64,000 bases of DNA from assembly GCF_018977255.1 (NCBI RefSeq), contig NW_024704742.1, forward strand, positions 120,220,001 through 120,284,000, given 5' to 3'. The position numbers and the translations under genes were made by a program. Positions within the stretch are counted from its first letter, which is position 1, and every line of letters starts with the position of its first letter. Positions 11,336 to 44,422 of this stretch are shown piece by piece. The notes under the pieces were generated by a model that saw only the letters and a program-made list of their open reading frames with translations, made no database searches and had not been told where the DNA came from. This DNA is from Callorhinchus milii. Taxonomy: Eukaryota.

Positions 11336-11379
11336 AATTGAATTGAGTGTTTTGTGAGCAAAACTGTTTAGAATTGTAA

Positions 11380-14917: not shown

Positions 14918-15291
14918 AATAATAAAAATACTTGAATTTGACATAGCGCCTTATCACATCGTTGAGATGTCTCAAAGAGCTTCTCAGGAAACTCTGTAAA
15001 GTAGATTGACTGTATTTTGCCAGCAAAACACGGTAGCCAGTTGCGCACAGCAATGTCCCACACACAGCTATGAACTGACCAATTGTATTTGGTGGTTTAT
15101 TGGCCAGGACACCAGGAGAAACTCCCTTTTATTTTTGAATCGACTAACAATCGGGTCTCTATCTACTGCTAGGTAAACAGAGGTGTGTGGAGTAAGGAAA
15201 CTTGCCCAATGTTTCGCCCTGCTGGGAATCAAATCCACGTCCTCTCGCTTGCGAGGCAAGTGCTCTAACCACTGAGCTACAGGACTCCACA
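14918..15291 (-). mobile_element. Diverged SINE, same head with longer central body
   Basis: Head GTGGAGTCCTGTAGCTCAG; extra body CCTCTGTTTACCTAGCAGTA; Deu-type tail. Confidence 0.8.
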
Positions 15292-16800: not shown

Positions 16801-16937
16801 TCTATTGTGATATTATTCAATTTAATGAGAAGGTTGTGTTTAAGCCACTAGTGTCTATAATGCTGAAACTAATAGCTACCTTTTCATTATCTCTACAATG
16901 TGATTTTCCATTATAATTATGCAACAGACCATCAGTG

Positions 16938-17709: not shown

Positions 17710-18109
17710 AACATGTCTGTACCTACTGGTATTCTTTGAAAATGTATCTGAACTAATGGACGTAAACTGTTGTATTTATTTGCATTTGACAAAGTTTCAA
17801 ATGCGAGACTCCTAAAGAAACTTAAAACTCACAAGATGAATGGCAAATTAGGTAGTTGGATTGAAAACCATCTTCGTCATAGGAAGTAGAAGATGATGAT
17901 AAATGTTAAAACTATGTCTGGGGGCGGTAAATGGCATTGTTCTGGAGGAGGTGTTCTGGGTCTCCCTGCTGTTTACACTGTCATAAACGAAATGATAGTA
18001 GAAAAAATTGCTTTACACAGAGGGTTGTGAAAATGTGGAATGCACTGCCTCAGGAGGCTTCAGGGGCAGAATCAATTGGGATGTTTCAAAGTGAGATAGG
18101 TGACTTACA

Positions 18110-19680: not shown

Positions 19681-22099
19681 CAACAGCCCTTGTTGGAAAG
19701 CAAGTGTCAAATCAGGAGTGAATTGGTCTCAGTTATGAATCCCACAACTGTTGAACAGCCTGCCAACATTCACTGCCCAGGCTGACAGATGAAGAATACT
19801 CTCTTGAGTGAGATAGTAGTGAAGAGCTGGTACCGATGCAGCACTGCTTCAGCATAAATCTGTGGCTTCAGAAGAGGAGATGAAAAATGCCTAAATATAT
19901 ATATTTCTAATTTCATGGATACTTCCAAATCAATGACTACACCATCTACAGCTTTTGAGCTCCATAGAGGAATGATATGAAACAAAATCAATTTATGACA
20001 GTCCGCTAAAATATGTACAAACTGGTATTTGCAAAAGATGCTTCCAAATGTTAAGTTGTTTATTTCTGAAGAGACAACCAAAGGATTTGGAGTTCTTCAG
20101 TACAGTAGCGGGTTGTGAAATTCGGAGATCGTGTTTTGCAGAATAGAAGTAACCTGTGATTACAATTTTGTGTGTAAGTGCCTGTAAGATGCATTATGAT
20201 ACAATAACAGAGCTTTGCAGGAAATGTCTCTGTCTGTACCAAAAATAACACATGGGAGATAATTCAAACTATTGTAGGAGACTCTTAATGGCTTTTCCTA
20301 ATGTATTGGGAACAGTCATTTTATTGGGCGGCAACATTAGGGAAAAAGAACACTTCTAAGTATAAATCATATCAGTAACCTTGTAAGGAGAAACCTAATG
20401 ATTTATTCTATACAAAGCAAAAATCTATTATTAATTGCAGTGAAAAAAGCTGGGGAGTTATTACCTCAGTAACTTCTGAAATGCCATTGAATGCCAGGGA
20501 ATGTGATCGTAAACATTATAGTATGCATGAAAGATTCGATTTCTAACCCCTGACAGTCACTGCTGTCCATAAGTAATGTGAACCAAAGGAATTGATAGCA
20601 ATTCACTTGATGAGCTTTAATTCACTTGATGAGCAATAATTGGGGTAAACAGTTATGCCGGAAACAAGATTATTAATTTTCCATATTATATCACATTGTA
20701 AAAATTCCACACGTTTGAGTGACTGATAAAGTGCATTTTACAAAACAATCAGAAAAGCTGATCAAAATTAGAGGGAACCCTTGAATGAATTGAAAACTTC
20801 CAACTGGGTGCTTTTTGTTAATAGGTTCTGTTATTGTGGAAAGTGTTGAAGAAAAATCTTCATAGTTAATGGTGTTTGTCTCAAGCCAGGAATGATGTCA
20901 ACAGAGAGGGTGGAAAAGGACATTTTTCTACTGTGAATCCAAGAGGAAGGAGAGGTGGGGGGGGGGGGGGGGGGGAAGAGAGAGGACAGTGAGTATTAAA
21001 TAACCATCAAAAATGAAAAATTCTTCCTCCCACCTCCCTCTCTCAAAGGGATACTCTGCTCCCCCTCATTTTCACGAATGACACAGAGAAAAACAGAGAA
21101 CGTGCTGGCATGGTTGGGATTTCCGAACCTTCTTAGTGTAAGACTACTAATCTCACCCACTTAGAGGTCAGCAGCAGATGGTAACAGCTGGCAGGGATGG
21201 GAAGTCCCAATAGAGAAGTGACAGAAGGATTAACAACCTGACAAAAAAATGGTGGTTAATAAGTACATTTGTTTACGTAAAACCAAAAAGACAGGCTGTG
21301 TGAACCCCTATGGTCCTGGATTTGGGGAATAAGAGGAACAAAATAAGTTGATTTTTATGCAATTTCAGGGGTTGTTTATGAAATGGATGTACAAATATGT
21401 CGTTCTTTTCAGGAAATGGAATGATGTCCTGAAGTGCAGTGGTTAGTGCTGCGCTCGCCTTGCAAGCGAGAGATCTGGGTTTGATTCCTGGGCAGCGCGA
21501 AACTTTAGGCAAGTTTCCTTATCTCACACTTCTCTGATTACCTAGCAGTAAGTAGGAACCCAGTGAGACCCGATAAACCTGTGGAACAGGGGCCCTAGGG
21601 AGACGAGCGAAGCAGGAAGTGTTGATTCCTTCAAACACAGATTAGATAGTTTTCTTTTAGGAAATAGTATTATGGGATAAAGTACATCGGTAGTTTGGAA
21701 CGCATGTGCATGCGACCATCAGGAAGGTGAACTAGATGGATCTTGGTCTATTTTTCATCTAGCATTTCTTATGTTCTTACGTTCTTATTGTTCACCCTGT
21801 TCCTCCCCGAATCCAAGTTATCTCCTTGGTTGGGGTGGAATTATCTAGCCAGCAGCTATTTACACAAATAGTCTCAATGGTGTTCCTTTGTCGATCTGCT
21901 AAAGACCCACAGGGTGATACACAGAGATACCTCCCTCCCGAACTTGTTTCCTTTGTTTTGCTGCAGACAAGTTGGCTCAGCCTAAAGAAACTCACCCTCC
22001 AGGAGAAGAAGACTGACCTCAAATAATAATCCTCACATTTGACATTACACCCTATCACATCGTCAACACGTCTCAAATGCTATAACAGCATATACCATA

Positions 22100-25000
22100 A
22101 GACCATAAGACGTAGGAGCAGGAGTAGGCCATTCGGCCCCTCAAGCCTGTCCCGCCATTTAATAATAATAATAATAATAATAATCCTTGCATCTGATACA
22201 GTGCTTTTCACGTCGGGAGGACGTCCCAAAGCGCTTCACAGAACACACTGTAAAGTGAATTGACTGTATATTTGTGGGCGAACGCGGCAGCCAATTGCGC
22301 ACAGCAATGTCCCACAAACAGTCGTAGATTGAAAATGACCAATTTTATTATTGTTTTTGGTTTTGGAGGGATTATTATTAGGCGTGTGGAGTGAGGAAAC
22401 TTGCCCAAGGTTTTGCCCTGCCTGGAATTGAACTCAGGTCTCTCACTTGCAAAGCAAGTGCTCTAACCACTGAGCTACAGGACTCCACTCATGGCTGATC
22501 TTCTAACCTAATTCCATTTACCCGCCCTATTCCCATATCCGTTAATCCCTCTATCCTTTAGAAATCTATCAACCTCAGTCTTGAATATGTTCAAGGACTG
22601 AGCATCCACAGCCTTCTGGGGTAGAGAATTCTACAAATTCACTACCTTCTGAGTGAAGAAATGTTTCCTCAACTCAGTTTGGAAAGGTTGACCCTTAATC
22701 TTGAGATTATGAACCCTAGTTTTAGAACATAACATAAGAACATAAGAATTAGGAGCAGAAGTAGGCCACTTGGCCCCTCGGGCCTGCCCCGCCATTCAAT
22801 AAGATCATAGCTGATATATTCTAACTCCACCTACCCGCCTTATCCCCATATCTCTTAATCCCTTTATCCACAAGAAATCTATAAATCTCAGTCTTGAATA
22901 TGTTCAAGGACTGAGCATCTATAGCCCTTTGGGGTAAAGAATTCCATAAATTTACTACCCTCCGAGTGAAGACGTTTTTTCTCAACTCAGTGCGAAAGGG
23001 CCTACCCTAATTTTAAGACTGTGACCCCTGGTTATAGTTTCTCCAACCAGGGTAAAAAGTCTCCCACTATCTATTCTGTTGTGCCCCTTTATAATCTTAT
23101 AGGTTTCTATAAGATCACCTCTCATTTTTCTATACTCTAGAGAATATAGGCCTAAATTGCTCAACCTATCCTCATAACTCATCCCCCTCATCCCAGGTAC
23201 CAACCTAGTGAATCTTCGTTGTACCCCCTCCAAGGCGAGTACATCCTTTCTTAAATAAGGAGACCAAAACTGCACACAGTACTCCAGGTACGGTATCACC
23301 AGGGCCCTATACAGTTGCAGCAAGACTTCTCTACTCTTATATTCTAACCCTTTTGTAACAAATGCCAACATACCATTAGCCTTCCTAATTGCTTACTGTA
23401 CCTGCAAACTAACTTTTTGTGACTTGTGTACAAGGACACCCAAGTCCATCTGAACGCTAACACTATCTAGTCTCTCCCCTTCTAAAAAATAATCTGCTCT
23501 ACTGTTTTTGCCACCTAGGTGGATGACTTCACACTTCCCTACATTATACTTCATCTGCCACCTATTTGCCCACTCACCGAGCCTATCTATATCTCGTTCC
23601 ATTTTTTAAATGTCATCCTCGGTGTTTACTCTCCCTCCTAGTTTAGTGTCATCCGCGAATTTGAATATATTAAGTTTGATGTGCTCATCTAGATCGTTGA
23701 TGTAGATCGTAAATAGTTGAGGCCCAAGCACTGATCCTTGTAACACTCCACTAGTCTCATCCCGCCAATCTGAGAAGGACCCGTTTATCCTTACTCTTTG
23801 TTTTCTTCCCGTTAGCCATTCTTCAATCCATGCTAATATATTCCCCTTAATTCCATGGGCCCTAATTTGTGAATCAACCTTTTATGCGGCACCTTATCGA
23901 ATGCCTTTTGGAAATCTAAATACACTACATCCACTGATTCCCCCCTACCTAATCTACTTGATATGTCCTCAACAAAATCTAAAATATTTGTTAAGCATGA
24001 CTTCCCTTTTGTAAAGCCATGTTGACTCTGTCTAATCATATTGTGATACTCTAAGTATCCCACTACGACATCTTTAATTAAGGATTCTAGAATTTTCCCT
24101 ACCACCGATGTCAGACTAACTGGTCTATAGATCCCCATCTTTTCTCTCCCACCCTTCTTAAATAGTGGTGTGACGTTTTGCGATCTTTCAATCGATGGGA
24201 ACCGTTCCAGAATCCAAAGAATTTTGGTAGATCAGACACAAGGCCTCCACTATCTCATGAGCTACCTAGATTCTCCAACCAGGGGAAAACAGTCTCACGG
24301 CATCTACCCTGTCAAGACTCTTAAGAATCTTATAGATTTCCATAAGATCACCTCTAATTCTTCTATATTCTAGAGAATATAGGCCTAGTTTACTCAACCT
24401 ATTCTCATAGGTCAAGCTCCTCATCCCAGGAACCAACCTAGTGAACCTAAGCTGCACCCCCGCTAAGGCAAGTGTGTCCTTTCTTAAATAAGGAGACCAA
24501 AACTGCACACAATATTCTAGGTGCGGTCTCACCAAGGCTTTATACAACTGTAGTAAGACTTCCCTACTCTTGTACTCCAACCCTTTTGCAATGAATGCCA
24601 ACATGGCATTAGCCTTCCTAGTTGCTTGCTGTACCTGGATACTAACTTTCTTTGACCGGTGTACAAGGACACCCAAATCCCCAAATGAACACTAACACTA
24701 CCTGTCTCTCCCCCTCTAGAAAATAATCTGCTTTTCTATTTTTACTACCTCGGTGAATAACTTCACACTTTCCCACGTTATATTCCATCTACCACCTTCT
24801 TGCCCACTCACCTAGCCTGTCTATTTTCCTTTGCATTCTTCTTGTGTCATCCTCACAACTTACTCTCCCACCTAGCTTTGTATCGTCCACAAATTTAGAT
24901 ATGTTAAGTTATATTTCCTCATCTAAATCATTGATATAGTCCGTAAATAATTGATGCCCAACACTGATCCTTGTGGCACTCCACTAGTCACATCCTGCCA

Positions 25001-26470
25001 ATCTGAGAAGGACCCGTTTATCCCTACTCTCTGTTTTCGTCCTGTTTGTCACTCTCCAATCCATGCTAATATATCACCTTTAATTCCATGGGCTCTAATC
25101 TTATGCAACAGCCTTTTATGTGGCACCTTGTCAAATGCCATATGGAAATCCAAATACACAACATCTACTGGTTCCTCCCCTTTTGAGGATGTAATCTGCT
25201 AGATACATCCTCAAAAAATGCTAAAAGATTTGTTAAACATGATTTCCCTTTTGTAAAGCCATGTTGACTCTGTCTAATCATGTTATGATTTTCTAAGTAC
25301 CCCACAACGACGCCGTTAAGGACTGTAGAATTTTCCCTACCACCGATATCAGACTAACTGGTCTATAGTTCTCCATTATTTGTCTCTCACCCTTCTTAAA
25401 TATCAGCGTTATGTTTGCGACCTTCTAATCACTGGGAACCATTCCAGAATCCAGGGAATTTTGGAAGATTAAAAACACAGCATCCACTATCTCTGCAGCC
25501 ACGTCTTTTAAAACCTTAGGATGCAGACCATCAGGTCTGGCAGGTTTATCGTTTTTTAATCCTATAAATTTCTCTAGTACTATTGCTTTACTGATGTTCA
25601 TTTCTTTTAACTTCCTCACCAACATTAGCCTCCAGGTTCCCCTTTATTTTCGGTAAGTTTTCAGTGCCCTCTAATGTGAAGACTGAAGCAAAATATTTGT
25701 TTAATGACTCTGCCATTTCTTTATTCCCCATTATAATTTCTCCTGTCTCTGCCTGCAATGGACTCACATTCACTTTTGATAGTCTCGTCCTCTTTATGTA
25801 CTTGTAAAAACTCTTACAATCTGTCTTTATGTTCCTAGCTAGTTTACCCTCATATTCCATTTTGTCCCTCTTAATCAGTTTCTTGGTTTTCCTTTGCTGT
25901 TCTCTAAAGCCCTCCCAATCCTCAGGTTTACTGCTCTTTTCTGGCAGTATTATAGGCCTCTTCTTTTAATTTTATACTTTCTCTAACTTCTCTAGTTAGC
26001 CAGGGTTGAACCACATTTCCCGTGGTATTTTTCTTTTTCAAGGGAATATGTGATCGCTGGGAATTATGTATTATATCTTTAAACATTTGCCATTGCTGGT
26101 CTATGGTCATATTTTTTAATCTAATTTCCCAGTCTATTTTAGCCAAATCTTCTCTCATACCTGCAAAGTTGGTTTTATTCAAATTTAAGACCCTTGCTTC
26201 GGATTCAACTATATCACTCTCAAACTTGAATGTTAAATTCCATCATGTTATGGTCACTCTGCCCTAGAGGAGCCTTAACTTCCAGATTGCTGATTAGCCC
26301 TATTTCATTACACTAAACAAGATCTAGGATCGCCTGTTCCCTGGTTGGTTCCTCAGCATATTGTTCTGGAAAACTATCTCTAATGCATTCTATAAACTCA
26401 TCCTCTAGTTTACTTTTGCCAATTTGGTTTTCCCAGTCTATATGGAGATTGAAATCACCCACTATTAATG
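22100..26470 (-). mobile_element. Stack of CR1-clade LINE copies (3' end about 22100-22725; copy about 22726-24262; copy about 24266-26470)
   Basis: [61 protein letters not shown], and endonuclease-end motif GDFNLHIDW; the same RT segments occur twice; (CTTATGTT)-type tails. Confidence 0.92.
22161..22488 (-). mobile_element. tRNA-derived SINE inserted in a CR1 3' end
   Basis: Full copy; the CR1 sequence CCGCCATT...CATGGCTGATC resumes on both sides. Confidence 0.9.
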
Positions 26471-26734
26471 TATTATTGTATATACTGTAAAGTGTAGTGA
26501 CTGTATTTTGTAGGTGAACACAGCAGCTAATTTGCACGTAACAATGTCTTATAAACAGTCATGAAGTGAATGACAAATTTTATTGGGGGGGGATTGGTGG
26601 CCAGGAGAATCTCCCTTCTCTTTCTCAATAGTGCCCTGGCATTTTTAATGTCCCCCTGAACAGCCAGATCGGATCTTGGGTTAATGTCTCATCTGAAGGA
26701 AGGCACCTCCAACACTAGAGTGCTGTGAGGTCAA

Positions 26735-27615
26735 AGGCAACAACAACTTGCATTTATATAGCTCTCTCCATGCCTGGCAGTGTCCCAGAGTGCTTAACAG
26801 TGGTGGAGCCCATTGCTGAGCCGGGTGGGGGGGTGGAGGGAAAGTTGACCATAGGCACGGTCAAAGAGAAAGGTCTTCAAGCTCAACCTGAACATGGGGA
26901 AATAGGGGGCATGGATTGCGGGAGGGAATTCCATAGCTTTGGGGAGTAGTGGCTGAAGGCATGGCCGCTGATGGTGGAGCAAAGAATTCGAGGGGGAGGC
27001 CAGAGCCAGTAGAAAGGAGGCAGCAGGTAGTGCTATGAGGAGAGAGGAGGTTGGAGAGATAGGTGGGGAGGGTGGGGGGAGCAAGGCTTGGAGGGATTTA
27101 AACACTAGAGTGAGGATCTTGAAGTCGATCCACTCTGTGACAGGGAACCAGTAGACTGGCAAGGACTGGAGTAATCGGTGTATGAAGTTTGGTGCGGGTG
27201 CGAATGTAGGCTTGGGGAGTTTTGGATGAGTTGAATTTTGTGAATAATGGAGGAGGGGAAACCGGCGATGAGTAGTCCAGCCGAGAGGTGAAGAAGGTGG
27301 GTTAAGGGTTTTGGCAGCTTTTGGGGTGAGGTATTGTTGGAGACGGGCAACATGGCGGAGGTGGAGGAAAACGGTGCTGGTCAGGAACCGGATGTGGCAG
27401 ATAACTGGGCATTGAACCTGATGTCTTAAATTGCGCACAGGTTCACAGAGTTTTAAGGACGGATCGGGTAGGTTGAGGAGGTCGGAACCGTGGGACGGAA
27501 GACGTCGATGGGAGCCAAGGAGTATAGCTCCCCTCTTGTTGACATTTAACTGCAAGAAGTTTGCACTCATCCATGCCTTGATGTCTGTCAGACAAGACGA
27601 CAAAACATCAGAGGA
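26735..27615 (-). mobile_element. L2 fragment inserted in an older SINE
   Basis: ORF 26794..27648 DIKAWMSANFLQLNVNK...IDFKILTLVFK...[13 protein letters not shown] halves on either side. Confidence 0.85.
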
Positions 27616-30600
27616 CTGGGGGTCCCGACATGGGGCTTGAACACACAACCTTCTTACTCAGAGGCTAGAATGCTACCAACTGAGCCAAGCTGACACAGAT
27701 CAGACTGATCAGAAAAGGCTGCCCCAAAGCCACTATTGTTTTAAACTGAATAAAACATTAGCAGAGTAGCTTTGAGCTACAATGTTTATCTGCACTATAC
27801 ATAAAGCAGCAATAATGAAAAACTGGCCTTGAGCTATAGGAGGACACAATGTGATTAGCTGCAGTAAAATCTGTCACGTTCACCTTAGCTAAAGTGCCAC
27901 CCACCATAGCTAACTATTTTGTTTAAGCAGAAATGGTTTTCTACAGTAATTTAATTCAACAGGAGCGACAGCTGGATTATGCAGCCACCTGTTCCCAAGA
28001 CCATAACTACTGGTAGAAAAACATGAGAGCCTAAAACACACCTGGATTAAGCATTCACCCTTAAACACGTGATTATTATTTAAAATGACCATTCTGTTTG
28101 GATTTGGGACAACAGCGAAACCTTAATATCTTTCACTGGGATTTAATAATTACTTGCCTTAAGCAACCTGTTTGGTTCAGTCTCAAAGGTGACTGTTGAA
28201 TACAAGTCCGGTCAAGCTTCACAGTAGCCTGTAGGCTACACAAATATTAGCTGGGCTAATACATTTCAAACATGAGAAGCCGGCTTGGCTGCTTGTTTTA
28301 CCATCTGGAGATCGTGACTATGATGGGAAATGCCCGCTGATTAAAAAATGGTTTGACAAGCCGCACAGTTGAAAATTATGGTGGAAATTAAGTAATTATG
28401 TAACATTAGGAAACTATTCCATTTGCCAAACATTTTGTGCAGATAAATTCTTATCAATTTAATTTTAGTGACTGCACAAATAAATTAAAATCAGACAATT
28501 GGTAAAAAATGCTGGTAAAAAGAACTCTGCCTCTGCTAAATCAACATAAGAGCAACAGAATAACCCCCTATGTTTACAGTTTGGAGAACAGACTGAATCT
28601 TCAGCCCACATAATTTTGGGAAAGATACACAGAAATTCCCCTTTCTCTCCCCCCCTGGATGTTTTGAAGCTAAGAAAAATGATTTGAAAATCCCACCAAC
28701 TCTCCGAGCTGCGTTTTTTGTCTGAATGTTTACCACCCCCCAAAAATAAATGTATCAACAGCAGGTTTTGGGATATATAAACGTGGTTGACCTTTTTCTT
28801 AATTCCCAAAGGTGGTGGTCAGACTCATACCATTGTTTTTATTTAGCATGCAGTTTGAATACAGATGTGGGCGCCTTTAACATTGCAAGAGATTGAAATT
28901 TTATTGAAAATCGTAGAAATAAAAAATTCCTCCTCTTGTTGGTGTGACCCTATTTCACGCTGGCATCAGTCTCTCTGGATCATGCCACTTTGTCTCACTG
29001 CTTTCTGCATTCATGACTTCCTAAACTCTCCCAACTCACATCTCTGTCTCCCAGTCTGCATCTTGGCCCATTTTGCCACGCATTCTCTTCAGTTGTCAGC
29101 ACCAAATGGAGGTCAGTTGTGGAGTGAGGTGCCTCTCAGCCACTTCCTCTGATATCAGGTACCTCCTCATCCTGTGCAACACATTTTACTGATGTAGTAA
29201 AATGTACTCACCTCCTCATTCATCAATGTCTCAATAAACTACCTCTTGATGTTCAGTGCTGCCCAGACTTGTAGATCATGAGGGATAAAGCTGCTTGCTG
29301 GCTTTACTGGTTGCGTCACCATAGCAACCAGACATCACGATGACCTTCGGTGAAGACACCTGTTAACTGTAGAACACTTGAAATCCTTTTAATGGACCTA
29401 CTTTTAATTGTTTTATTAGGTACATAAAACACTTAACTTTGTTTAGATAATGTATTTACAAGTGTGTTCCTGATGTGCTGTGTTTCTGTTTCTGTTACAC
29501 AGGTTATTTATTTTTCTCATAATTTTGGCCCACATTGAAACCACCCCTTTTGAACTATCTGGTTTTGTTACCTCTGTATACAAAAAGTTAAATACACCTT
29601 GAAAAAAACAGATACATTTTATCATAAAGTCATGTTAAGGTGGCTTCATTTGATAGTGCTTTGTGATAATTGCGTCATTCCCTGAAGCAGAAAATGAAAT
29701 GATAAATATTGTTACAATTTTCAGTGCTTTCTTTCCAGTTATTTTTCCAATCGATGGAGATTAAAGAAGAAAAGAGCAGACCACTGAGAATGACTCAGAT
29801 CGATGTAGAATTAGCTCTCAAATTCTCAAATCATACGTAATATCGAAACAATCCGTTCTCTAATATTGTTTAGTGTATTTTCATTCAAATTAATTTGCAA
29901 ATGAACGTTCGGTCTGCAGGGAGGTTTATTTTTGTCAATAATGCAGAACCTTTACATCTAAGTGTATTATGCAGGGTTGATCAGCTAAGCTGTAAATCAG
30001 ACAACTGCATTAACTTGCCTGACCTTTCACAGTCAGCAGGGCATTCTAAAACACATTCATTCCAACTTCCAGACACTGTTATAATAGTTATAAATCATTG
30101 TGTCACTCCCAACCAATCAGAAGCAACTTTTTCATTTGGGAAATGACACTATAAAATTCAGTGACTTTGCCGGCAGCCTACACTTCAAACTAGATGCGCT
30201 TCCAGCATTCCATTTCTGTCTACCGCCCCGTCAAACTCCTAGAAGTTCCTAAATTATTTAGGTTCTCTGGGGGATTTCTGTTTAAATCTATTAATGGGGT
30301 GAAATGTGTGGCGCTTCATTTGTGGTATCACATTGAATCTCTTATGAAATGTTCATAATTTCAACCCTGTGTTTCTTCTGAAATAAAAAAAAGGAAATTT
30401 TTTCCTTGCAATTAAAAATATGAAGTTTAGTTTCTCTCAGAGGTTCTGAGATACTTCTGATTGGATGCAGACAACAGCAACAGTCTAGTGCAATGGATAA
30501 TGTTCCAAAAATGTCAACTTTCAAACAGTTTAGCAAAGGTCAAAGTAAAATGTATCAAGCATTTTTCTTAATTTTTCTCCCGACTCAGACTGGGCTACAA

Positions 30601-30884
30601 TTACATGGGTGCAGGCACCTCACCTGCCGTCATTCATCACGTATGACCTGAGAGAACATTTCGGAAGGATATTCAACTATATGGAGATCACAGGCCAGGC
30701 CCATCCTGCTCTTAGCTAAGTGAACCTTCCAACGGGAAATGGACTGATTTCGCCCTTCCCGAGCCCAGAAGTGGTGAAGTGAAATACAGAACTCCCCACT
30801 GAGATCAATTACCTAAATATGGCTGGGGTTTGAATCTGCAATTTTATGGCTTATTGATACTTTGGTATTGTCTTTACCTGTATA

Positions 30885-31285
30885 ATAATTTACTTAGCAT
30901 TTGGGCTAGCACCTTATCATGTCAGCAAAAGTCTCTAAGCGTTTCACAGGATTTACTGTAAAGTGTAATGGCTGTATATTTGTGGATTGATTTGGCAGCC
31001 AATTTGCACATGGCAATTCTCCAGCAAAGTCCCACAAACAGCCACAAAGTGATTGACCTGTTGAATCCATAAGATTGTTAGTCGGGATATCGAATAGTCC
31101 ACTTAAATAGGAAGATGGCATTACGATTTAATGTCTCATCCACAGGATGGAACCTTTGACAAGATATGCTCGTCCAACGCTGCACTGGAGCATCAGCCTA
31201 GATGGTGAGCTCAACATTACGATATAAAGCTCGAACCCACAACCTTCTCAGAAGTGAGAGTACTACCAACTGAACCAAGCTGACT
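30885..31285 (-). mobile_element. Older Deu-domain tRNA SINE (SacSINE1/AmnSINE1-like)
   Basis: Reverse head CTACCAACTGAACCAAGCTGAC, body TGCACTGGAGCATCAGCCTAGAT, Deu-type tail. Similar relics at 15715-15880 (+), 26480-26725 plus 27615-27695 (-), 38610-39000 (-) and about 50680-50780 (-). Confidence 0.65.
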
Positions 31286-31593
31286 CCTATTGGGGGCGAC
31301 TATTCACTTAACAAGTCAACTGGAGGCAACTGTACTAATGATGAATTGTCTGGAACCAAGGCTTTTACTTTGATATATGACCTTGCATTCCGCTATTTGA
31401 GTAACTGTTAACAAAACTTCAAAGAAGATTGTATTCCCATTCCACAGAGTCAGAATCCATGCATAACCCTGCACATATGAAAAGATTATTTCTGTTCTGT
31501 AGCTAAAACAGAAAGGGTGTTGGGTGTTAATGACCTGGTTATGATCTGGTGAAAGATTTGACTTCTCATTTCCTTTTCTCTTCTACCTTGAAG

Positions 31594-31707
31594 GAAAACA
31601 GCCTTTTCTCAAAACAGTCAATGATAATAAGTAGGTTGAGAAGAGCTTTTCTACTCTCTGGAGGAGATGCCAGAGGCAATATTGTCATGGAAACATTCAG
31701 AAATGAT
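31594..31707 (+). pseudogene. Possible decayed internal CENPK exon
   Basis: Strong pyrimidine tract plus AG acceptor and a GTAAG donor. Broken frames give LKT...EKSFSTL or EELFYSLEEMPE, versus CENP-K LKTK...EKLLSTLGEFLE (recalled). Confidence 0.3.
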
Positions 31708-33160
31708 GTAAGCTCTATTGACAGATGAGGAAGGTGTAGGCATTTATTCACACATTTGGATCTTGGGCTGTAGGTTATAATCCAGAGCTCCCCAAGAAGA
31801 GAATACTAGTGTGTACTGAGTTTAGAATCATTTGGCTGCACTCAAATTTTTCAATTCAACAAATCTTTGGTGTTGAGGTTTTTCTTTTATTTTGGAGCAT
31901 AATGTTGCGTAAGCATAAACCTGAAGGGGGTGGAAAGCTGAAAAGAACTTCGTATTAGTTTAAAAGCTTTCCCTCCTTTGCTGTGAAGGCAAAAGATATA
32001 ACACGCTGAGTGCGATAGGCAGTGGAGCTTTGGGAAACAGGTTCTCACCTTGATATCCCTCCCCCAACCACACACACAAACACACCTCTGTGTTCCTGAT
32101 TTCACTAAATGCCCTTTAGGTATTTGCACATAATTAGAGAAAGAGATCGCATCACCTCTTAGTAGTTGGCTTTAGAGCAACAATATCAGCAGAGGCCAGA
32201 ATTGCTCCATTAGGTGAGGAGATTCAAGAAAGGTAATCCAAAACAATAGAAAAATAATACTTTTGCAGGTTGTCCCTGCTACAAAAGATGTAGGCTTTTC
32301 AACTGAATGCTAGATGCACAAGACTGGGTGTCAATATATTATGAGTTGGTTAAAATTTCATCCTGCAATTATTTGTCAAGAGGACATCTGAAATCATTAC
32401 ATAAAACATTGCATATATTACAGTATTGGAACACTGAATTTTGAACTTAGTACGAGAGAGCAGATGGAGGACTAAGCACTGTCTTTTTAATATAATGTTA
32501 TATTTTATATTACTTTTTATATTATTTTATATTTTCTGGGCTATAATCCTTGGAACAAAACATGGTTCCCATTGGTTTGACCACAATCCTCCGTACTGGA
32601 TATCCAGAATCACCATTTGAAACCCCATTACAACATCAACAACTTGAATTTATATGGTGCCCTTCACATTGGGTAGTATATCAGAGCACTGCATTAGGCT
32701 CCAATTTAGGTCATTTTGTGGATTTCTGGCTTTTTGTAACTCAGAGATGTACATCTGTTATTTGCACCCAATTGGAGTAGATAATGTGTTCTCTTTAATT
32801 GACCTGGCACGAATATTCCCACAAATGTTCTTTACAGTCTTTTGATCAGGAGTCAGCAGATGGCAAATAGGGGAGGTTAAGATACTCCTAAACAAGGATT
32901 AGCTAGCTGAGCACGCTGTGTTACTTTAAATGGGTGCACTTTATATTCTTGTCAGTCAAAACTCTAATGGCTGACCTGGAACATTTGAATTCGTGCCTGC
33001 ACATCCCCTCAAGGTCATTTCCCTTGCCTCTTGGTATGTTGAACATCTTTGTATCTGCTCTTTTTGGCTACATTACCAGATATTTCCATCTTGGGGGTTC
33101 TGTTTTTGGTTTTGGATTCCTGCAGCCTGTCCCAATCTTTGGACTTCCCTCTTTGTTCTA

Positions 33161-33645
33161 TAATAATAATAATCCTTACATTTGATATAGCACCTGATCA
33201 CATCTTCGAGACGTCCCAAAGCGCTTCACAGAATATACCGTAAAGTGAATTGATTGTATATTTGTGGGCGAACGCGGCAGCCAATTGAGCACAGCAATGT
33301 CCCACAAACAGTCATGGATTGGAAATGACCAATTTATTATTGTTTTGTTTTTTTGGAGGGATTATTATTAAGCGTGTGGAGTAAGAAAACTTGCCCAAGG
33401 TTTCGCCCTGCCTGGAATTGAACTCAGGTCTCTCACTTGCAAAGCGAGTGCACTAACCACTGAGCTACAGAACTCCAATTATTACCCCCAGAAAAGCGAT
33501 CCGCCAATCAACTAACAACTGGTTTCCTACTTACTGCTAGGTAAACAGAGGCGTGTGGAGTAAGGAAACTTGCCCAACGGTTCACCCTGCTGGGAATCGA
33601 ACCCAGGTGAGGCGAGTGCTCTAGCCATTAAGTTACAGAACTCCA
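33161..33645 (-). mobile_element. Full SINE (33161-33477) plus a second SINE head (about 33520-33645)
   Basis: Two tandem heads ending ...ACAGAACTCCA; the second carries the CCTCTGTTTACCTAGCAGTA body. Confidence 0.85.
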
Positions 33646-33812
33646 ATGACAGACCAGGGAGCCTGGCTCATTAGCAGAATATGGTGCACTTATATCTTAT
33701 CTATTCATAATTTTGGTAGAGGCCTCAGCCCACTCTTAGGATTCTTTCCTCTACCATCAACAAATGTAGTGTCAAAGTTTATAGATGATACAACCAAGTT
33801 TTTTTTGTAAGG

Positions 33813-33945
33813 ATTTTTAAAAATCTGAATAATTTTCATTCTGGAAGTCTCAAAAGAAATTCCTGGCCAAGAGAAGCCATTTTCTGGCCTCCATCCTCCT
33901 TGTTCTGTTAAAACATGGACTCTTATTAACCTAGACACCCCCAAT
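33813..33945 (+). pseudogene. CENPK: Decayed CENPK terminal exon (frameshifts and stops)
   Basis: TTC TGG CCT CCA (FWPP, 33882-33893), then 11 nt, CTG TTA AAA CAT GGA (LLKHG, 33905-33919), then 13 nt, AGA CAC CCC (RHP, 33933-33941). This matches CENP-K C-terminal FWPPYVELLLRNGIALRHP (recalled) with two indels. A T-tract/AG lies upstream at about 33800-33811, and position and strand are syntenic between PPWD1 and ADAMTS6. Confidence 0.6.
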
Positions 33946-34940
33946 AAATATTAAATAAATAAACCCATTCTCTGTGCTCCCAAGTCTCTGGATTGCTGTT
34001 AAATTGCATTGTGAGCAATGAAAGCATCCACCACCTTGCTCTTCATTGCTTCTTATTAGTTTTCTTAGTTTATCAGGCCTGTTTCAGTTGATTTTCATCT
34101 CTTTTTGGTAATTCATGAGTGCTCATGTTTACTTTTGTGTAGCTGACGTGAGTAGTTCTGCATTTACTTAGTTATTCAAATCGTTGTAGGAATATGATAA
34201 ACAGATTGGCAAAGATTTTCCACCCCAACAATATTAAGAGGACACATGATTCCTGAGACTCATTTGCAGCTACAGAGTCAAGTAGCGAGATCTGAAGAAA
34301 AAAAATTTTATATGCAAAAATGTTTTTACGCCGTATGGAAAAAATAATTGAAACCATGGAGTAAACAGCAAAAAAACACATTGTGACAGTATTGGGTAGA
34401 ATGGACCATGACATTCAACTTCTACCTTACGTTTGACACATCTACCTCCACATCTGATAACAGAATAATTTTAATTTCAAGCAAGCTGTCTAATTCCTTT
34501 TTGAATCTCTTCATAGCTCCTTGTTTGCTGGGAGTTTATTTCTTTTAAAAATATCTAGTTATATGAGCAGTAATAATAATAATTATAATAATCCTTGCAT
34601 TTGATATAGTGCCTTATCATGTCTTTAATACTTCTCAAAGCACTTCACAGAATATACTGTAAAGTGAATTGAATATAAGATCCTGAGCATTCTGCACTGA
34701 GTCCAGAAACTCAACAAAATCCTGTGTTAGTACCTGAGCAATAATGTCAAGTCATATAATTTTTGTATCATTTCAATATAAATTGGAGTCGTCTAAAATT
34801 GAATGGTAATGAATAATAATAATAATCTTTGCATTTGGTGTGGCACCTTTCATATCAGGACGACTTCCCAAAGCGCTTCACAAGTTATATATTGAGTTCC
34901 TGCTCTTGTTCATGTATTTGGAGAACTTTTCATGCAGAGA

Positions 34941-36475
34941 CAATAGAACAAATATATTGTTTACCGAAAAATATTCTGTGTTGAATCAAATTTGTAAACT
35001 TTTACAACATATGGCATTTGAATTATAAAGAATAAAGAATCACTAATAGATTTAGCCTGGGTTGGGTTAGGTTTAATTCAATAGTGTTATATTAGCGTTA
35101 TAAAAGCAATGTCCACATGAGACTATAGACATCTCCACCCGGAGAGAAAGGAATACCACATGGGTGAAGAAGTCACCACAAACCAATCGTAGATAGTTCC
35201 TCGCAGCCAGATTAAGAGGTAGCGTTCGCAAAACCTAGCAAACAGTTTGCTTAGCATATCTCTTAACATTCAAAATGATGTGCAATATGAGCAAAATTAA
35301 AGAGAGAGTATAAGTAGAGAATTTACTTTTACAAAAGATAAAAAGCAGCAAGAATGCAATAATGATGAATATACATGTGTTCAGTTGTTTGTTTTTGCTA
35401 CACTATGAAATCCAAGTATAGCGATTGACAAAAGTTGTGTTTACAGTGTAATGTATTAACTATTAAAATGAATGTCATTCTGCCATATCTCTGTTGGTGC
35501 ACATAGTGACACCCCCTAGGATTTGCAGACATATCCAGCGGTGTTCCAGTCATCAAGGGTCTCTGTTACCACTGTTAGAAATGCATTTGGTTTATTCTTT
35601 CTGTTATGCCAAAGGGTAGCTTTCCTTTGGGTCCCAATGCATGATGTCAAATGTCATGTAATGTAAACAGTGGTTAAGCTCCTGTGTAAACACACACACA
35701 GACACACACACACAAACTGGAAGCATTTAATTTGGCTCCATTTTAATTTATTGTGACTACTTTGCACACAAGGTGCTTCATCTCAAAACATGTAGCAAAT
35801 ACAATGCAAGACAATCCCTTAGGATACTTGAAAACTGATTTCAATGAAAAAGATGAATATTATACAATGTAGTCACTAATATTCTATCATCAATTCTGAA
35901 TTTTCTTTTAAATAATCACAGTGATTTTCAGCATGATCTAACTTGAGGGAATGTTGAAGTCATTTCTCTGTTTAATGTTAATCTGCCTCACTATGTTTCA
36001 GGTTGTTTATGTTATTCTTAAACCAGATTTAACTAACATATTAGCCTGCCTTTAAGAAAACCAGGGCTATGTCAATATGGGGACCATTACAGTTCATAAT
36101 GGATTGTAAATGTTGTGAATGAATTGCAGGTTCCGTTCTTACAGACAAAACACACAATATTTTGATTTCTGAAAAAATCTCCAGTACTAAATCGCAACAG
36201 CTGATTCAAATTTGGATATAAATATTTTATTTAAAAATAGCATAGATTTTTGACATTGAAGATAACAGAAACAATTCTGTTTGATTTGTGCCAATAGAAC
36301 AAATGTATTGTTTACCGAAAAATATTCTGTGTTGAATCAAATTTGTAAACTTTTACAACATATGGCATTTGAATTATAAAGAATCACTTTAGTTCTCACT
36401 ACAGATTTAGCCTGTGTTGGGTTAGGTTTAATTCAATAGTGTTATATTAGTGTTATAAAAGCAATGTCCACATGA
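34941..36475 (+). repeat. About 180-bp direct repeat pair (34941-35120 and 36292-36475)
   Basis: CAATAGAACAAAT.TATTGTTTACCGAAAAATATTCTGTGTTGAATC...TAAAAGCAATGTCCACATGA is present twice with few differences. Confidence 0.9.
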
Positions 36476-37744
36476 TGGCATCTCCTGCATATGTTTATTG
36501 AAATCAAAGTCAGAATTTCAGATAACTCAAAGCCTTACAGACATTAAGCTTCCATTGCTCTTTCAGGTACAACTACATTGTGTTTTCCTGTGTACCAATT
36601 TACCTTAAATATACCAGTTAGTTGCTTTTTCATTTTTTTAATTATGGTTCTATTTCTGAGAAAGTACAGTAATAGAATTTTTAAAATATTATAAGCATCA
36701 CCACATGTGTGTGGGTAGGTGTTACATTTCACAGACTATGGATATTTTGGAACAGTATGCATACCAGCATTATTTTACCCTCGTTCTCCATGGCATGTTT
36801 TTTACGCAGTGTGCAATGAAGGAAAGGTGGAATCCAAATTAATATAACACATAGATTTTGCTAAAACAGTTTAATTGCCGTGTTGTGCTCAGAGGTTCAT
36901 GCTGTATTTAGACTCACAGAAGCATAAACAGTTAGATATTGATGGGCCGTTTCTACTTGTCAGTGAGTCCAAAACAAGAGGGCATAAATATAAGATGCCC
37001 AAGAAATCTGAAAAATCTAAGATTCAGGTGCAAGACCTCGATTGTCCAGTGCCTTGTGACGTCCTTTCTACGTGAAAGGCGCTACAGTTTATAATTGCAA
37101 TTTGTTGTTGTTGTCTCAGATTTGATCACTGATATCAGGCTGCGGCACCACAATTGACCTCAGTGTCCCCATGTATGCAAAGGAATCAATAGCCAGGATC
37201 GCACTCCTGAATGCCATCAGTTCACTCCTGAAAGAAGTGAATCTATGGATGTGGTTTAAGCACAGAACCAGAGCTGGGTTCTCATGTATCCACAGTTAAA
37301 TCGCTTGCCAAGAATCACTGCTGAACTCATACATGAATAGCCACTTTGTGCGAATCGTACATGAGCACCATTTTCAAGATAGGAGCTGGGAAATAGGGTT
37401 ATTGTATGAAAAATCTAACAACCATAGTGGACGCATTACTGACTAGAGCTAGTAAAGAAAATAAACAGATTCAGAGAGATTTCCAATTGATATATACACA
37501 TATATAATATATATATTTCACTACAATATATTTTTAATGTGTAGCCATAAAAACTAATTTTGTATTTAACTAAACTGAAATGTGAAAATGTGAAATGTGA
37601 AACAAAAATGAAAATTTGCATTTCTAGCAACGTCTAAATTTGGACCTGTCTCGTTCGCTACTAAAAAGAGTTTCTCCACATAACCTAGCCATAACCCTCC
37701 AGGTAAAATTGATCATTCACTACAGGCTATTTGTGCATCACTTA

Positions 37745-38020
37745 ATAATATAATAATCCTTGCATTTGATCTAGCGCTTTTCATGTCTTCTAGACGTTTC
37801 AAAGCGCTTCACAGAATAGACTGTAAAGTGAATTGACTGTATATTTGTGGGCGAAATGCGGCAGCCAATTGCGCACAGCCAATTGCGCATGACAAATAGT
37901 CGTGGATTGAAGTGACCAATTTATTATTGTTTTTTTTTGAGGAATTATTATCAGGCGGGTGGAGGAAGGAAACTTGCCCAAGGTTTCGCCCTGTTGGGAA
38001 TCTAACCCAGGTCTCTCACA
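37745..38020 (-). mobile_element. tRNA-derived SINE, 5'-truncated
   Basis: Same body and tail as the other copies. Confidence 0.85.
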
Positions 38021-39621
38021 CTTCTGTGTGCAAATTGGTTGACACATTTGCCTACAACTACACATTACTACACATTACAGAAACTTTTTGATGTGCTTTG
38101 AGATGTTCTTGATGTTATAGACACAATATCAATGGAAGAATTATTATTACTACCTCTTCTCATTTTACCTGATTTGCCTTATAACATTCATGGCATCGCC
38201 TTAAATTTCGATTGCGTGTATTTCCATCTTTCATCTACAGTTCCTGAATGAATGAAATGCAAATTTCACCTCTTTCCAATTCTGCCTCTTTCCAATGCTG
38301 TTGTTATTCTTTTGACTCCAACTTCTGATCCAAAGGGTGGGTTAGTTTCTTTCATTCTGATAACCCTGCTACTTACCTTAGTTCCCTCAAATCATCTGAT
38401 TTTCAACCTTTTGTGGCTAAAAATATCTCTACTTCATCTCACTAAATTTATCTGCTGACACTATCATTCCCCACATCCCCATGTCTGGATAATTATACAC
38501 AATTTTTCAGCTTTCTGTCCTACAAAATCAACTATATCAATTCTAACTTCCCTCTCCTGGAATCATCAATCTTGATGACTTCAATTTTCAACATGAACAT
38601 TATTCTTTCAATAATAATCCTTGTCTTTGATACAATGCTTTTCACATCTGGATGATGTTTCAAAGCGCTTCACAGGATATACTGTACAGTATAGTGACTG
38701 TATTTTGTAGGCAAACAGCCAATTGTGAGAAATGTACCTCAAACAGCCATGAAGTGAATGACCAATTTTATTTGGAGGATTGTTGGCCAGGAAACCAGGA
38801 GAAACTTCTTCCTCTTTTCAAATAGTATCATGGAATCTTTAACTCGGTTTACCTTCTCAGCACCTCCAACTATGGCACAAATCCACAGCACTCATTGGAT
38901 GGTCAGCCTAGACTGCTTGAGTTCCAAGTCACGGCATTGGGGCCTGAGCCTACAACCTTCTGACTCAGAGAAGTCAATGCTACCAACTGAGACACACTGA
39001 CATTGTTTTACTGATATAGGAAGCCAAACAGGCACTAATGCACAACCCTTTGTTTCTCTGAACTGTCCTGTCTTATTCCACTCTGAGCACCAAGAAATGT
39101 TGTTATACATGCTCTTGCTCTTTCTTGTAGGCTCACTGCGTCAAAATCAAGATTTATCCCCCAGCGGGTCTAATTCAAGGTCCTCATTCTCACCTTTACT
39201 TCCCTTCACGCCTTGTCCCATCCTACTTCTGCAGCCTCTTACAACTCTCCTAACCTGGTCGCTCCCTTCACTCAGTAACTACTAGCCTGGTTCTGATCCC
39301 CTGCCTTGTCCACCCCACCATTGGCTCGCGAGCTTTCAGCTATTCTGCTCCCCACTCTCTGGAATTCCATCCTGGATTCCTTCCAACTCACCCCATCCTT
39401 CCCATATTCAAAGCCTGCCTCGAGACATACTATATTCTCAGTAATTTTTCTTCTGCCAATCCTCTTCAGCTCTCACCCTCTGGCTTGGGTGGCCAGCCAG
39501 CAGGGTGAAGCTCTTTCAGACATCCTTCTGATCTGGAAAATGCTATATAAATGTAAATTGTATTGGAATAACCTTTTTAGCTTACCTTAGCATGTTTTTC
39601 TCACCTACTCTTTCTGCTTTT

Positions 39622-41157
39622 CCTCCACCGCTTGTCCTCCCACCTTAACCTTCAAGGCCCTGTCCTTGAGTGGCTTAGGTCGTACCTCTCCCACCGTCTT
39701 CATTTTGTTTCCACAAACAGCTTTTCCTCCAGCCCCTGTACTGTCTCGTCCCTCAGGGCTCTGTCCTCGATCCCCTCCTCTTCACCCTCTATATGCTCCC
39801 CCTTGGTGACATCATCCGCAGACATGGGGTTAACTTCCACATGTATGCGGATGACACCCAACTCTACCTTTCCTCCGCTACCCTCAACTCCACGACCACC
39901 GATGTCCTGACAGCCTTCCTGTCCGACATTGAGTCCTGGACGAGAGACAACTTTCTTCAACTCAATGTGCGTAAAACTGAGGCCATCCTGATTGGCTCAC
40001 GTCAGCACCTCCGCACCTCAGGCGCTGACAGCATCAGCATCCAAGGCTGCACTCTCCACCTCTCAAAGTCAGTCAGGAACCTCAGTGTTCTGTTCGACCC
40101 TGAGCTGTCCTTTCTCCCTCATATCTGCGCCACAACTGGCACCGCCTTCCATCACCTCCGAAACATCGCCAGACTACGGCACTACCTCACCCCTCACGCT
40201 GCTGAAACTCTGGTCCACGCCTTTGTCACCTCAAGGCTGGACTATGGGAACTCTCTCCTCGTCGGCCTTCCCGGCACCTCCCTCCACAAGCTGCAGGTCA
40301 TTCAGAACTCTGCAACTCGTGTGCTGTCCCGCACCAGGCTTCGGGACCACATCACTCCCACCCTCGCTCGCCTCCACTGGCTCCCCATCCCCCAGAGGAT
40401 CGAATTCAAGATCCTCATCTACAAGGCCATTCACGGCCTTGCTCCCTCCTACCTCTCTGACCTACTATCCCCCTACCTACCTGCCCGTACCCTCCGTTCC
40501 TCTGGCTCCGGTCTGCTCCACATCCCCCGCCCCAACCGCCCTACCATCGGTGGCCGGGCCTTCAGCCTCTCAACCCCTAGGCTCTGGAACTCCATCCCCT
40601 GTGCCTTTGGCCTTGCTTCCTCCCTTTCCTCCTTCAAGGCCGGTCTCGAGACCTTTCTCTTTGACCGTGCCTTCACGGTCCGAGTCCTGTAGCTCAGTGG
40701 TTAGAGCACTCGCTTTGCAAGCGAGAGACCTGAGTTCAATTCCAGGCAGAGGGCGAAACCTTGGGCAAGTTTCCTTACTCCACACGCCTAATAATAATCC
40801 CTCCAAAAACAAAATCAATAATAAATTGGTCATTTTCAATCTACGACTGTTTGTGGGACATTGCTGTGCGCAATTGGCTGCCGCGTTTCGCCCACAAATA
40901 TACAGTCAATTCACTTTACAGTGTGTTCTGTAAAGCGCTTTGGGACGTCCTCCCGACGTGAAAAGCGCTATATCAAATGCAAGGATTATTATTCAGCTCC
41001 CCTCTCAACTCTCTACCCCCTCCTCGCCCCTCTCCCTTCCCTCCCCTCACCCTGACCATTTCCCCCCTGCTCGGGTCCTGACCCAACTGTCCAGCGCCTT
41101 GGGTCGTCGTCCCGACATGAAAAGCGCTCTATAAATGGAATCTTGTTGTTGTTGTTG
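39622..41157 (+). mobile_element. Young L2-clade LINE (interrupted by a SINE)
   Basis: ORF 39793..40692 (YADDTQLY...RLDYGNSLL...LHWLPI); highly similar to the 12007-13873 copy; (TTG)n tail. Confidence 0.95.
40682..40993 (+). mobile_element. tRNA-derived SINE inserted in a young L2
   Basis: Full copy splitting L2 GACCGTGCCTTCA|GCTCCCCTCTC; TTCA is present on both sides. Confidence 0.92.
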
Positions 41158-44100
41158 GATCTCAATGAAAAAAGAATCTGCAACACAGAGTACCACTGGC
41201 AGACCCCAGAAACAAACTATAAGCAACTGCAATCAATGCATGCTCCAGGGACCCTAAGTCTTGGCTCTTGCCAACCTGCGCCTAATACTTTCCGGAATTA
41301 TGTAAGCAGGATGCGTCCCTCCAGGGAGAGAACGCGCATTCCATTCCAACAATCTATCTCTGGAATTTCCATGTGGAGGTGGGAGGCCTGGAATTCTCAG
41401 TTCGATTTGGATATTGTTGAACATAGTGATGGATTTCTGCGTGTGTCGGACACCCAGCTGACCGCCCCCAAAAACGCTACACTTACATAATTGTTTTTCT
41501 GCTTATACGTATAGAAAGTATCACAAAATTGTTTTATGAACACATCTAGTGTTAATCTACCATTTATGAAATGCAATATTAATTTCCCTTTTTCTAGTGC
41601 AAAAGTCATAGTCCAAACATTTACATTTAAGGAAAACATAATAATAATAATAATAATAATCCTTGAATTTGATATAGTACTTTTCACGTCTTCTAGACGT
41701 CTCAAAGAGCTTCACAGAACAGACTGTAAAGTGAATTGATTGCATTTTTTGTGGGCGAAACATACCAACAAACTTGCCTTTGAATGTTCAAAATATCCCT
41801 CTGTTGTGTACATGGAATGATTCCTGTAAAACAAATACCTTGTTATCCCAGATGGTTAAAATTATTAACTTTGCCAGATCATTAATTGAAAACTGAACAA
41901 GAATTATAAAATTATGCAAAACATTACCTGAACTTGATTAAAAAGATGGAGGAAATGTACTAAGTGTCGAGGCATAAGGGCTCCAGGAATAATAATAACA
42001 CTAGCAAAAGTGATAATCGTATTCACAACACCAAACGACAAATCATTGTGGCGCCGAATATCTGTGTTTTTGTACAGTAGCAACAATTCTGTGAAAATCA
42101 TCAGTGCTTCATGACAGATTTATGGAACAGTGAAAACAGCTCTGTTTGAATACACCACTTCAGTCACAATCCTTTACGTTTATACAAAGTTATTACAGTT
42201 TCATATCCCCTGCGTGGAATTCGTCATTAACTCTCTCTGGTGGTCTGTCAGTTTTGAACATATATCTAATCAAAGACTTAATGGGTTACACTCCTACACC
42301 CCCCCCCCCCCCCCCGCCCCATCCCTCCCTGCCCTCTACCCCTCCTGATCCCAACCCCCAGCTCAGGTCCAAATCCCTGACTGTCCAGCGCCTTGGGGCA
42401 TCCTCCCAACTTGAAAGGCTCTATACAAATGTAATTTGTTGTTGTTGTTAATCGGGTTTCTCTCAGTTTCCTGATGTGAATTTGCAGTCACTTACTTTGT
42501 CTGTGGTTTGAGCCACAAGGTGGCGTTCTCTAAACAAACCCAGGGAATCAATCCTCAGTTTAGTCAAATGATTGTCTGGATATGAACTGTTCCAATTTTT
42601 TGCACACTCCCCTGGGAATGAGGGTGAGAGACATATTTTACCTGGTAGTTCCCAGGAATTGGTTATATAGTAAATGATTATCACAGAAGCAGATCAACAT
42701 ACTTTATGCAATCTGGAACTTTATCATACTGTGATGTCTGACTCATCATATGAGACCCAGACTGGAACATGCAAAACATTTGTTTTCTTTGAAAGAGCCT
42801 TTCTAGCAAAGACTATCATTAGATTTCTTGCATCTGTGTTCCTCTTGTAGGTTAATTATTTTGCCAGCAATAATGATTGGGATTCAATTTCACCAGCACC
42901 GAAATACAGACAACTGAGTGAATAAAGAAAAATGTGAAATTAATATTTGTGTTTATTTGCCTGGTACCCAGTGTTATTGTTGGGGCGAGAGCATACACAC
43001 ATTTTTACGTGTTGGGTGAGTGTTTGTTGAAAAGCTTCTTCCCTGTAATTACTTTTCTTGACATTAAAGATGTCAGGTCCGGATTCATAGTTCAGGGCGA
43101 ATATTTATTGCAAACAAACAAGCGTTTCACCGATTCGACATAACATATGGAGTGTGTTTATTTGAAATTGTCAATACCCACCACAGGATGTACTTATACC
43201 TTCTAGACTTGTTTGGCGTGGAGCCAAGTAATGAGAAGGTCACGTTGAGGACTAGCGGCTGTGGAGACTGATGCGTTTCCCTTTCACCCCCCAACCCCCC
43301 TAAGAAAGCTGGACAACACGGGCTCACTCACGACCTTTAAATCATCGAGAAGGCCAGTTAAACCTTCCAGAGACCACCAAAGGACTTACACCTACTACCT
43401 CCGGCGTGGGTTGGGACAGGCTAATGGGAATAAAGCCTGATCCCCACCAATGCTCAGGAATGACACAGAATGCTCGGAAACTTTGCATCTTGTCTGTTTT
43501 TTTCAGATGTTGCGTGGCTCACCGAGTGGGGGCACGATTTTAAAAGAATTTCTCAAAGAACTTCTCCCCAGCTCAGAAGTTGGAAAGCAAATCTATCACT
43601 TGAAATCACTGGAAGTCCACGCAGCTTTACAGTGCATTTGTGCCTTAAATGTATGAAACGGATACATGCATATATTTTAACCCCCCACCCCCCCCACACC
43701 CCCACCCATAACACACATAGATTCAAATCAAACTGCATACCAGAACAGCTTACAATAACATGCCTTGCCTTCTGATCAGTTTAGTCTCCTTTGTTTATTG
43801 AAATAAAAATGCAAGTACACAAATAATCCGACGTGCCTTTGTTTCACAACTGTATTGGACACGTTTCACTAAAATGTGGTATCATTAACACAATTAGCAG
43901 TGTGACTGCAATGCAATGTAAAATATTTGCGAGCTACAAGGACTTGGTGCCCATCCGCACATCATTATAATTGTATTAAAGAGAATCAACCCAATGCATA
44001 CAGCAACTGCTGTATATGAGTAGTTACCGACGGTTTTACAAACGGTTGCAAAGCCAAGTTCCAAACCAGTAGTCCTTTCATATAAAAAATTCTCCTTTAT

Positions 44101-44389
44101 TCCTCCTCCCCCCCCACCCCACCCTGATTTAAAGCTTTGCTCCTGGTGGTACTAAAAGAAAATTCGCTTATTTATGGTTTGCATTACTCAATTCAGTTGT
44201 TTTTTTCAAATTCACAATAAAATCTAAAGCGTTATTATCGGTGGGACCCACATGCAGTGATTGCCCAATGTCATTTTAACCTCCAAACGGTGAACCAGTA
44301 ACTCCACCACATTTCGATTGAACTTGCTGCCAAGTTCTGGCAGCTTTTCATTGACTTGGGTTTTCTTTTGATATTGCACTCAGCTAAGC

Positions 44390-44422
<33 letters not shown>

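Follow-up and report, generated by a model that had tools for sequence, protein, structure and literature searches.

CENP-K is intact and spliced in Callorhinchus milii, and its gene, missing from the assembly, has likely left the PPWD1-ADAMTS6 interval, where a 63-nt look-alike likely matches by chance

CENP-K belongs to the CENP-H/I/K/M subcomplex of the CCAN, and a sequence-only reading of a C. milii window (the whole stretch of 64,000 nucleotides analysed here) had described a heavily decayed exon of its gene between PPWD1 and ADAMTS6, taking this to mean either that the lineage lost CENP-K or that a functional copy lies elsewhere. We consider it highly probable, taking all parts together, that CENP-K is intact and spliced in C. 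milii, that the assembly lacks its gene, that this gene likely left the PPWD1-ADAMTS6 interval before the split of chimaeras and sharks, and that the 63-nt motif remaining in the window is likely a chance match. A supposed loss of CENP-K in a vertebrate is thereby struck off as false. Mining of the assembly finds broken copies only and would lead to the same wrong conclusion again; kinetochore biology is left unchanged by these results.

The live CENP-K of C. milii

An intact C. milii CENP-K of 273 aa is on record (P0001) and was found with a retrocopy fragment as query. It matches PF11802 over positions 10-259 of 263 (E 1e-63) and is thus a near full-length member of the vertebrate CENP-K family, with the conserved C-terminal motif. 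In all three presumed RNA runs, from two studies, there are contigs 80-90% like the near full-length retrocopy on contig C2, and one presumed-RNA contig of 1044 nt spans L009:1593-2299, in the locus of this retrocopy, with loose ends that read as P0001 on both sides. In a DNA run, a 192-nt contig has the same five listed substitutions and exits into a GT intron at L009:1658, which is the boundary of a 20-residue exon skipped in two shark isoforms (P0002 and P0012), and it is exactly across this point that the C2 retrocopy is continuous. Since this intron-bearing exon in DNA has the same substitutions, the spliced form derives from an intron-bearing gene. The CENPK intron start and the last-exon signature have zero matches each in the assembly, and the best assembly match to P0001 is 77% identical, from which it follows that the assembly does not contain the live CENPK. 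The coding DNA of this gene has roughly 52% GC, as estimated from the substitution table, compared with 40-43% in the PPWD1 and ADAMTS6 exons, and the live gene may therefore lie in GC-richer DNA that is hard to assemble, as would fit this contrast. The avian “missing genes” in GC-rich assembly gaps, as described in the available parts of PMC9516821 and PMC5470226, are alike in having transcripts and raw-read contigs while being absent from the assembly, and also in having coding DNA that is GC-richer than that of their syntenic neighbours, with the difference that CENPK has likely left its bony-vertebrate neighbourhood as well.

If CENP-K had disappeared from this lineage along with a remodelling of the inner kinetochore, each CENPK copy of the assembly would indeed be expected to be broken or 5'-truncated, as is the case here, but this first option of the sequence-only reading is refuted by the protein record, the spliced contigs and the intron-bearing genomic exon, and the alternative of a functional copy elsewhere holds. 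Only contaminated records would rescue the loss, and these records share their substitutions with the DNA contig of the same species. Furthermore, the assembly-wide check for the partner subunits found their loci, with a CENP-H last exon without stops and multi-exon CENP-I and CENP-M, and altogether we leave practically no probability to the loss. On the side, there are two multi-exon CENP-M-like loci, at C31:2.157-2.159 Mb and C1097:17-20 kb, of which the latter may represent either a paralogue or a haplotype left unmerged, and at C3:48.418 Mb there is an isolated CENP-I-like fragment that contains a stop.

The PPWD1-ADAMTS6 interval and its 63-nt motif

We take the gene order in human and chicken to be ADAMTS6-CENPK-PPWD1, with PPWD1 and CENPK head-to-head. 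In the window, the first five coding exons of PPWD1 are on the minus strand and span 771..8222 (8222-8088, 6349-6239, 4289-4185, 2033-1890 and 1220-771), one of them being identical to C. milii PPWD1 at 145/146 positions. On the plus strand, an open frame at 59350..59985 contains, at about 59.4-59.8 kb, the pro-domain exon (PF01562) of the gene that we presume from its motifs, with no named match, to be ADAMTS6, whose catalytic exons are past the window end. The intergenic interval between both genes, 8300..44400, is free of gaps, there being 0 N in the whole 64-kb window, and has abundant LINE and SINE remains. No intact CENPK exon was found in 8300-44400 by tblastn with four CENP-K proteins (best E 0.23 in the window), assembly searches for CENPK at the Pfam, DNA, protein and pattern level never gave a match in the window, and blastn of the retrocopy coding DNA against the window gave a best E of 2 among the matches listed. 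The tblastn result and the gap-free window bear out the earlier claim that no intact CENPK exists between PPWD1 and ADAMTS6, and the window itself codes for no CENP-K, having just a 20-codon look-alike with two frameshifts. As a separate observation, positions 51000-56200, in the first ADAMTS6 introns, are a stretch of about 5 kb with 49-57% GC, CpG-poor and with few long open frames, which is probably a tandem array.

The look-alike of the CENP-K C-terminus occupies 63 nt of the plus strand (33882..33944) and aligns with profile positions 251-270 through two frameshifts, with 11/20 residues equal to the consensus and with the invariant E and R absent. It begins with the FWPP codons (33882..33893), whose frame meets a stop at 33909-33911, continues in a second frame with the LLKHG codons (33905..33919) and ends with RHPQ and a stop (33933..33947, RHP being 33933-33941), the spacers having 11 nt (-1) between FWPP and LLKHG and 13 nt (+4) between LLKHG and RHP. 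These positions, shifts and the FWPP-frame stop are as the sequence-only reading gave them, and the human CENP-K motif that it cited agrees with the PDB chains. The raw-read check proved the lesions real, given that contigs in 2/2 DNA-sized runs span the site and have no indel in 33882-33945, so that the motif spacing is not an assembly error. The AATAAA motifs said to follow are also present, three of them (33943, 33954, 33958) in an AT-rich micro-repeat of the plus strand at 33943..33963, but they occupy the place of 12 further conserved C-terminal codons and therefore give no support to a terminal exon; we rejected them as poly(A) support because they are misplaced relative to the stop, and 3.8% of nearby positions have an AATAAA within 50 nt. 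A possible splice acceptor near 33811 was seen by eye only, and the aligner found no similarity upstream. In two presumed RNA runs there was no contig over 33854-33921, which is uninformative on expression either way, and a run search with 33620-35600 had no RNA run among its matches.

The significance of the motif was assessed with a profile made from 24/36 CENP-K proteins, leaving out short isoforms and partial bird records, and with a purpose-written frameshift-aware aligner. The site is the top peak on both window strands (128 kb), with 53.4 half-bits and the next peak at 47.3. Shuffles of the 36-kb interval reached 53.4 in 3/120 cases with the full profile and in 1/120 with the C-terminal profile, column-shuffled decoy profiles reached the site score in 4/300 and Markov sequences in 4/600, and the Gumbel p was 0.005-0.019, all of which amounts to an overall p of about 0.005-0.025 at frameshift penalty 12. 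In 1.2 Mb of real assembly background (both strands), peaks as high as the site numbered, with the full and C-terminal profiles respectively, 8 and 0 at penalty 8, 0 and 0 at penalty 12, 6 and 3 at penalty 16, and 321 and 78 at penalty 24, with 0.09-0.18 chance matches expected per 36 kb at penalty 16 and 2.3-9.7 at penalty 24. Two chance peaks, with scores of 64.0 and 53.5, came from a further 300 kb of strands, as did another look-alike of the C-terminus, near ADAMTS10, with 50.4. Since the outcome varies with the frameshift penalty, the protein-level signal of the motif is marginal and penalty-dependent, and in the control with shuffled sequence that was proposed along with the sequence-only reading the site beats most shuffles at penalty 12, but against the real background it is not significant at 16 or 24. 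No other exon remains were found in the window, the remaining peaks (at most 46) being within the null range and out of exon order, and the remaining two thirds of the putative last exon showed no similarity.

Given that a dead exon decays as DNA, a nucleotide profile was also scored under neutral decay, and with it the site was never the best of the interval (0/7 settings), with 0.4-6.4 equally good chance matches per 36 kb, and with 16-20 bits for the site against 82-98 bits for a true retrocopy. Its DNA score of 20.7 falls among those of chance peaks (11-26; 18 real and 19 Markov), and a DNA score as low was found in only 9/504 whole-exon and 13/1395 fragment-only simulated fossils of similar protein score, in simulations that drew synonymous codons uniformly and took proteins of the profile as their source. 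The mismatches of the site are concentrated in whole codons, like those of chance matches. Age does not exclude a remnant, because 18-51% of simulated exons still score at least 53.4 at 0.4-0.5 substitutions per site, and about 0.42-0.48 substitutions per site are assumed since the 421-My split according to the part of PMC5499810 available.

The 63 nt could, then, genuinely be what is left of the former CENPK last exon, within the same history of relocation, either decayed over more than 400 My or kept awhile as a second copy or as an ADAMTS6 regulatory element. This would explain why the best protein-level match of the window, at p 0.005-0.025, is the most conserved part of the protein, on the expected strand and in the expected interval, why no background peak in 1.2 Mb equals it at penalty 12, nor at penalty 8 with the C-terminal profile, and why RH is still followed in the motif by the ancestral P, in whose place the C. 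milii CENP-K has S; moreover, the motif has no SINE tail and hence is not of the retrocopy set described below. However, a remnant is at odds with the 0/7 result of the DNA model, with the clustering of mismatches in whole codons, with the lack of similarity to the rest of the CENPK last exon and to any other exon, and with a significance that is gone at penalties 16-24, and for these reasons we regard it as unlikely. Less likely still is that the remnant, more than 400 million years old, comes from a second CENPK copy, there having been two in early jawed vertebrates, of which bony vertebrates kept the one adjacent to PPWD1 and cartilaginous fishes the other; if this two-copy reading were true, the CENP-K proteins of sharks and humans would be hidden paralogues of each other. 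With the setting-dependent score, the chance-like DNA score and no other exon remains, the case for a heavily decayed pseudogene exon is weak, and the 63-nt motif is likely a chance match. Compared with a unitary pseudogene or exonic remnant at a vacated locus, as presented in the accessible portion of PMC9004415, it is alike in position, strand and protein-level resemblance, and unlike in that a live copy exists, that significant nucleotide similarity is lacking and that there is a single fragment here.

The place of CENPK in cartilaginous fishes

CENPK and PPWD1 are on contigs of differing size in 7/8 named sharks and rays, synteny being inferred here from contig sizes and not from gene order. 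The PPWD1 and CENPK contigs have, respectively, 288 and 16 Mb in Heterodontus, 181 and 71 Mb in Chiloscyllium punctatum, 386 and 114 Mb in Scyliorhinus torazame, 194 and 4.0 Mb in Stegostoma, 111 and 63 Mb in Hemitrygon, 202 and 0.23 Mb in Mustelus, and 250 and 0.036 Mb in Cetorhinus, with two shark CENPK records being on small contigs of 36 and 231 kb. The exception is Narcine, with both genes on a 376-Mb contig and accession numbers about 4,700 apart. To these we would presumably add, matched through their accession series, Heptranchias (199 and 3.9 Mb) and C. plagiosum (157 and 28 Mb), while Rhincodon, S. canicula, Mobula, Pristis, Hemiscyllium and Hypanus, represented by the CENPK contig only, stand outside the count. 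In the coelacanth, PPWD1 and CENPK are both on a 432-Mb contig. Differing contigs in 7/8 elasmobranchs and a shared one in the coelacanth make it likely that the move is older than the chimaera-shark split, and CENPK likely left, or never joined, the PPWD1-ADAMTS6 interval in all cartilaginous fishes. The comparison covers jawed vertebrates, the hagfish PPWD1 records being without contig data, and the move may have gone in either direction, which makes the interval a putative ancestral locus at most. The PPWD1-CENPK head-to-head pair, as we take it to be arranged in human, is thus likely broken across cartilaginous fishes, and a broken pair would mean that CENPK gained a new promoter. The literature search found no report that cartilaginous fishes have lost or relocated CENPK, within a coverage that most subscription journals fall outside of.

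It might instead be thought that the live CENPK belongs in the PPWD1-ADAMTS6 interval of C. milii and was dropped from it by mis-assembly, because the assembly lacks the gene and bony vertebrates carry it here, as in the coelacanth and in chicken, where ADAMTS6, CENPK and PPWD1 are all on Z in the available part of PMC11904536. Nevertheless, the window is without N, sharks too have CENPK off the PPWD1 contig, and the CENPK coding DNA is richer in GC than the local exons; the read check for a mis-join removing CENPK covered 33650-34650 only. We therefore find a dropped gene very improbable and keep to a relocated one.

As another candidate place, the 2R ohnolog slot beside ADAMTS10 was considered and rejected, since on C21 the ADAMTS10-like gene is preceded by 150 kb with neither CENPK nor a gap, the Ns there being three single ones. 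This gene is at C21:5.51-5.57 Mb, with an actin-related frame at 5.662 Mb and, about 30 kb upstream, an exon that we assume to be ZAP70-like.

CENPK retrocopies and their SINE tail

The assembly has six intronless CENPK retrocopies, all of them outside the window, at C2:56.161 Mb, C13:11.681 and 11.696 Mb (in tandem), C26:1.401 Mb, and C1:5.703 and 109.092 Mb. Five of the six are 5'-truncated, the matches to P0001 beginning at residues 1, 85, 85, 218, 233 and 239; stops or frameshifts occur in the four longer ones, and the two shortest lack their head. Past the stop codon, every one of the six continues with a CT-rich tract and then a SINE inserted at one and the same point, whose ATT-repeat tail is the end of the copy. 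The SINE is short and head-deleted in four retrocopies and longer in two, always at the same insertion point, which suggests that the UTR SINE of the parent changed over time. No target-site duplications were evident by eye in the retrocopy flanks. A tRNA-headed SINE of this same family is found in the window on the minus strand (33150..33480) and is unrelated to the 63-nt motif.

The SINEs of C. milii (CmiSINE/SacSINE1-CM) have a tail in common with L2-2_CM, and stringent LINEs need that tail, according to the parts available of PMC5499810 for the former and of PMC3747384 and PMC5470649 for the latter. A SINE in the 3' UTR of the parent gene could have supplied the tail recognised by the L2 reverse transcriptase, with the CENPK mRNA hitch-hiking on it, and this hitch-hiking through the 3' UTR SINE is the likely origin of the retrocopies. 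CENPK would thereby join the genes with an mRNA likely copied by L2 machinery via a SINE tail. In being intronless and mostly 5'-truncated, and in all ending at the SINE tail, the six copies resemble the SINE-tail processed pseudogenes treated in the same portions of PMC5499810, PMC3747384 and PMC5470649, and they differ from the 3' UTR Alu retrocopies covered in the accessible part of PMC5199112 in that L2-type rather than L1 machinery would have been at work, on a SINE that would have been in the parent UTR. The literature search, which most subscription journals fall outside of, found no report of SINE-tailed retrocopies in C. milii.

Several minor observations concern these copies. The C13:11.681 Mb (L011) and C26:1.401 Mb (L012) retrocopies are exactly identical over 238 nt, while L010, the tandem twin of L011, has at most 35 nt in common with L012; the identity is either a polishing chimera or ectopic gene conversion. 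A CENPH processed pseudogene at C4:26.374-26.376 Mb (L093) has its 3' UTR fused to a sense SINE tail and the parent CENPH (C1:119.004 Mb) is without a SINE tail at the fusion point, a template switch being possible. The near full-length C2 retrocopy is immediately preceded by a tandem array with a unit of about 20 nt (L009:1150-1445). Finally, a 225-nt contig of one presumed RNA run joins part of the C26 retrocopy, together with the 5' flank, to the apparent 3' flank, leaving out what lies between, and represents either a deletion allele or a spliced read-through.
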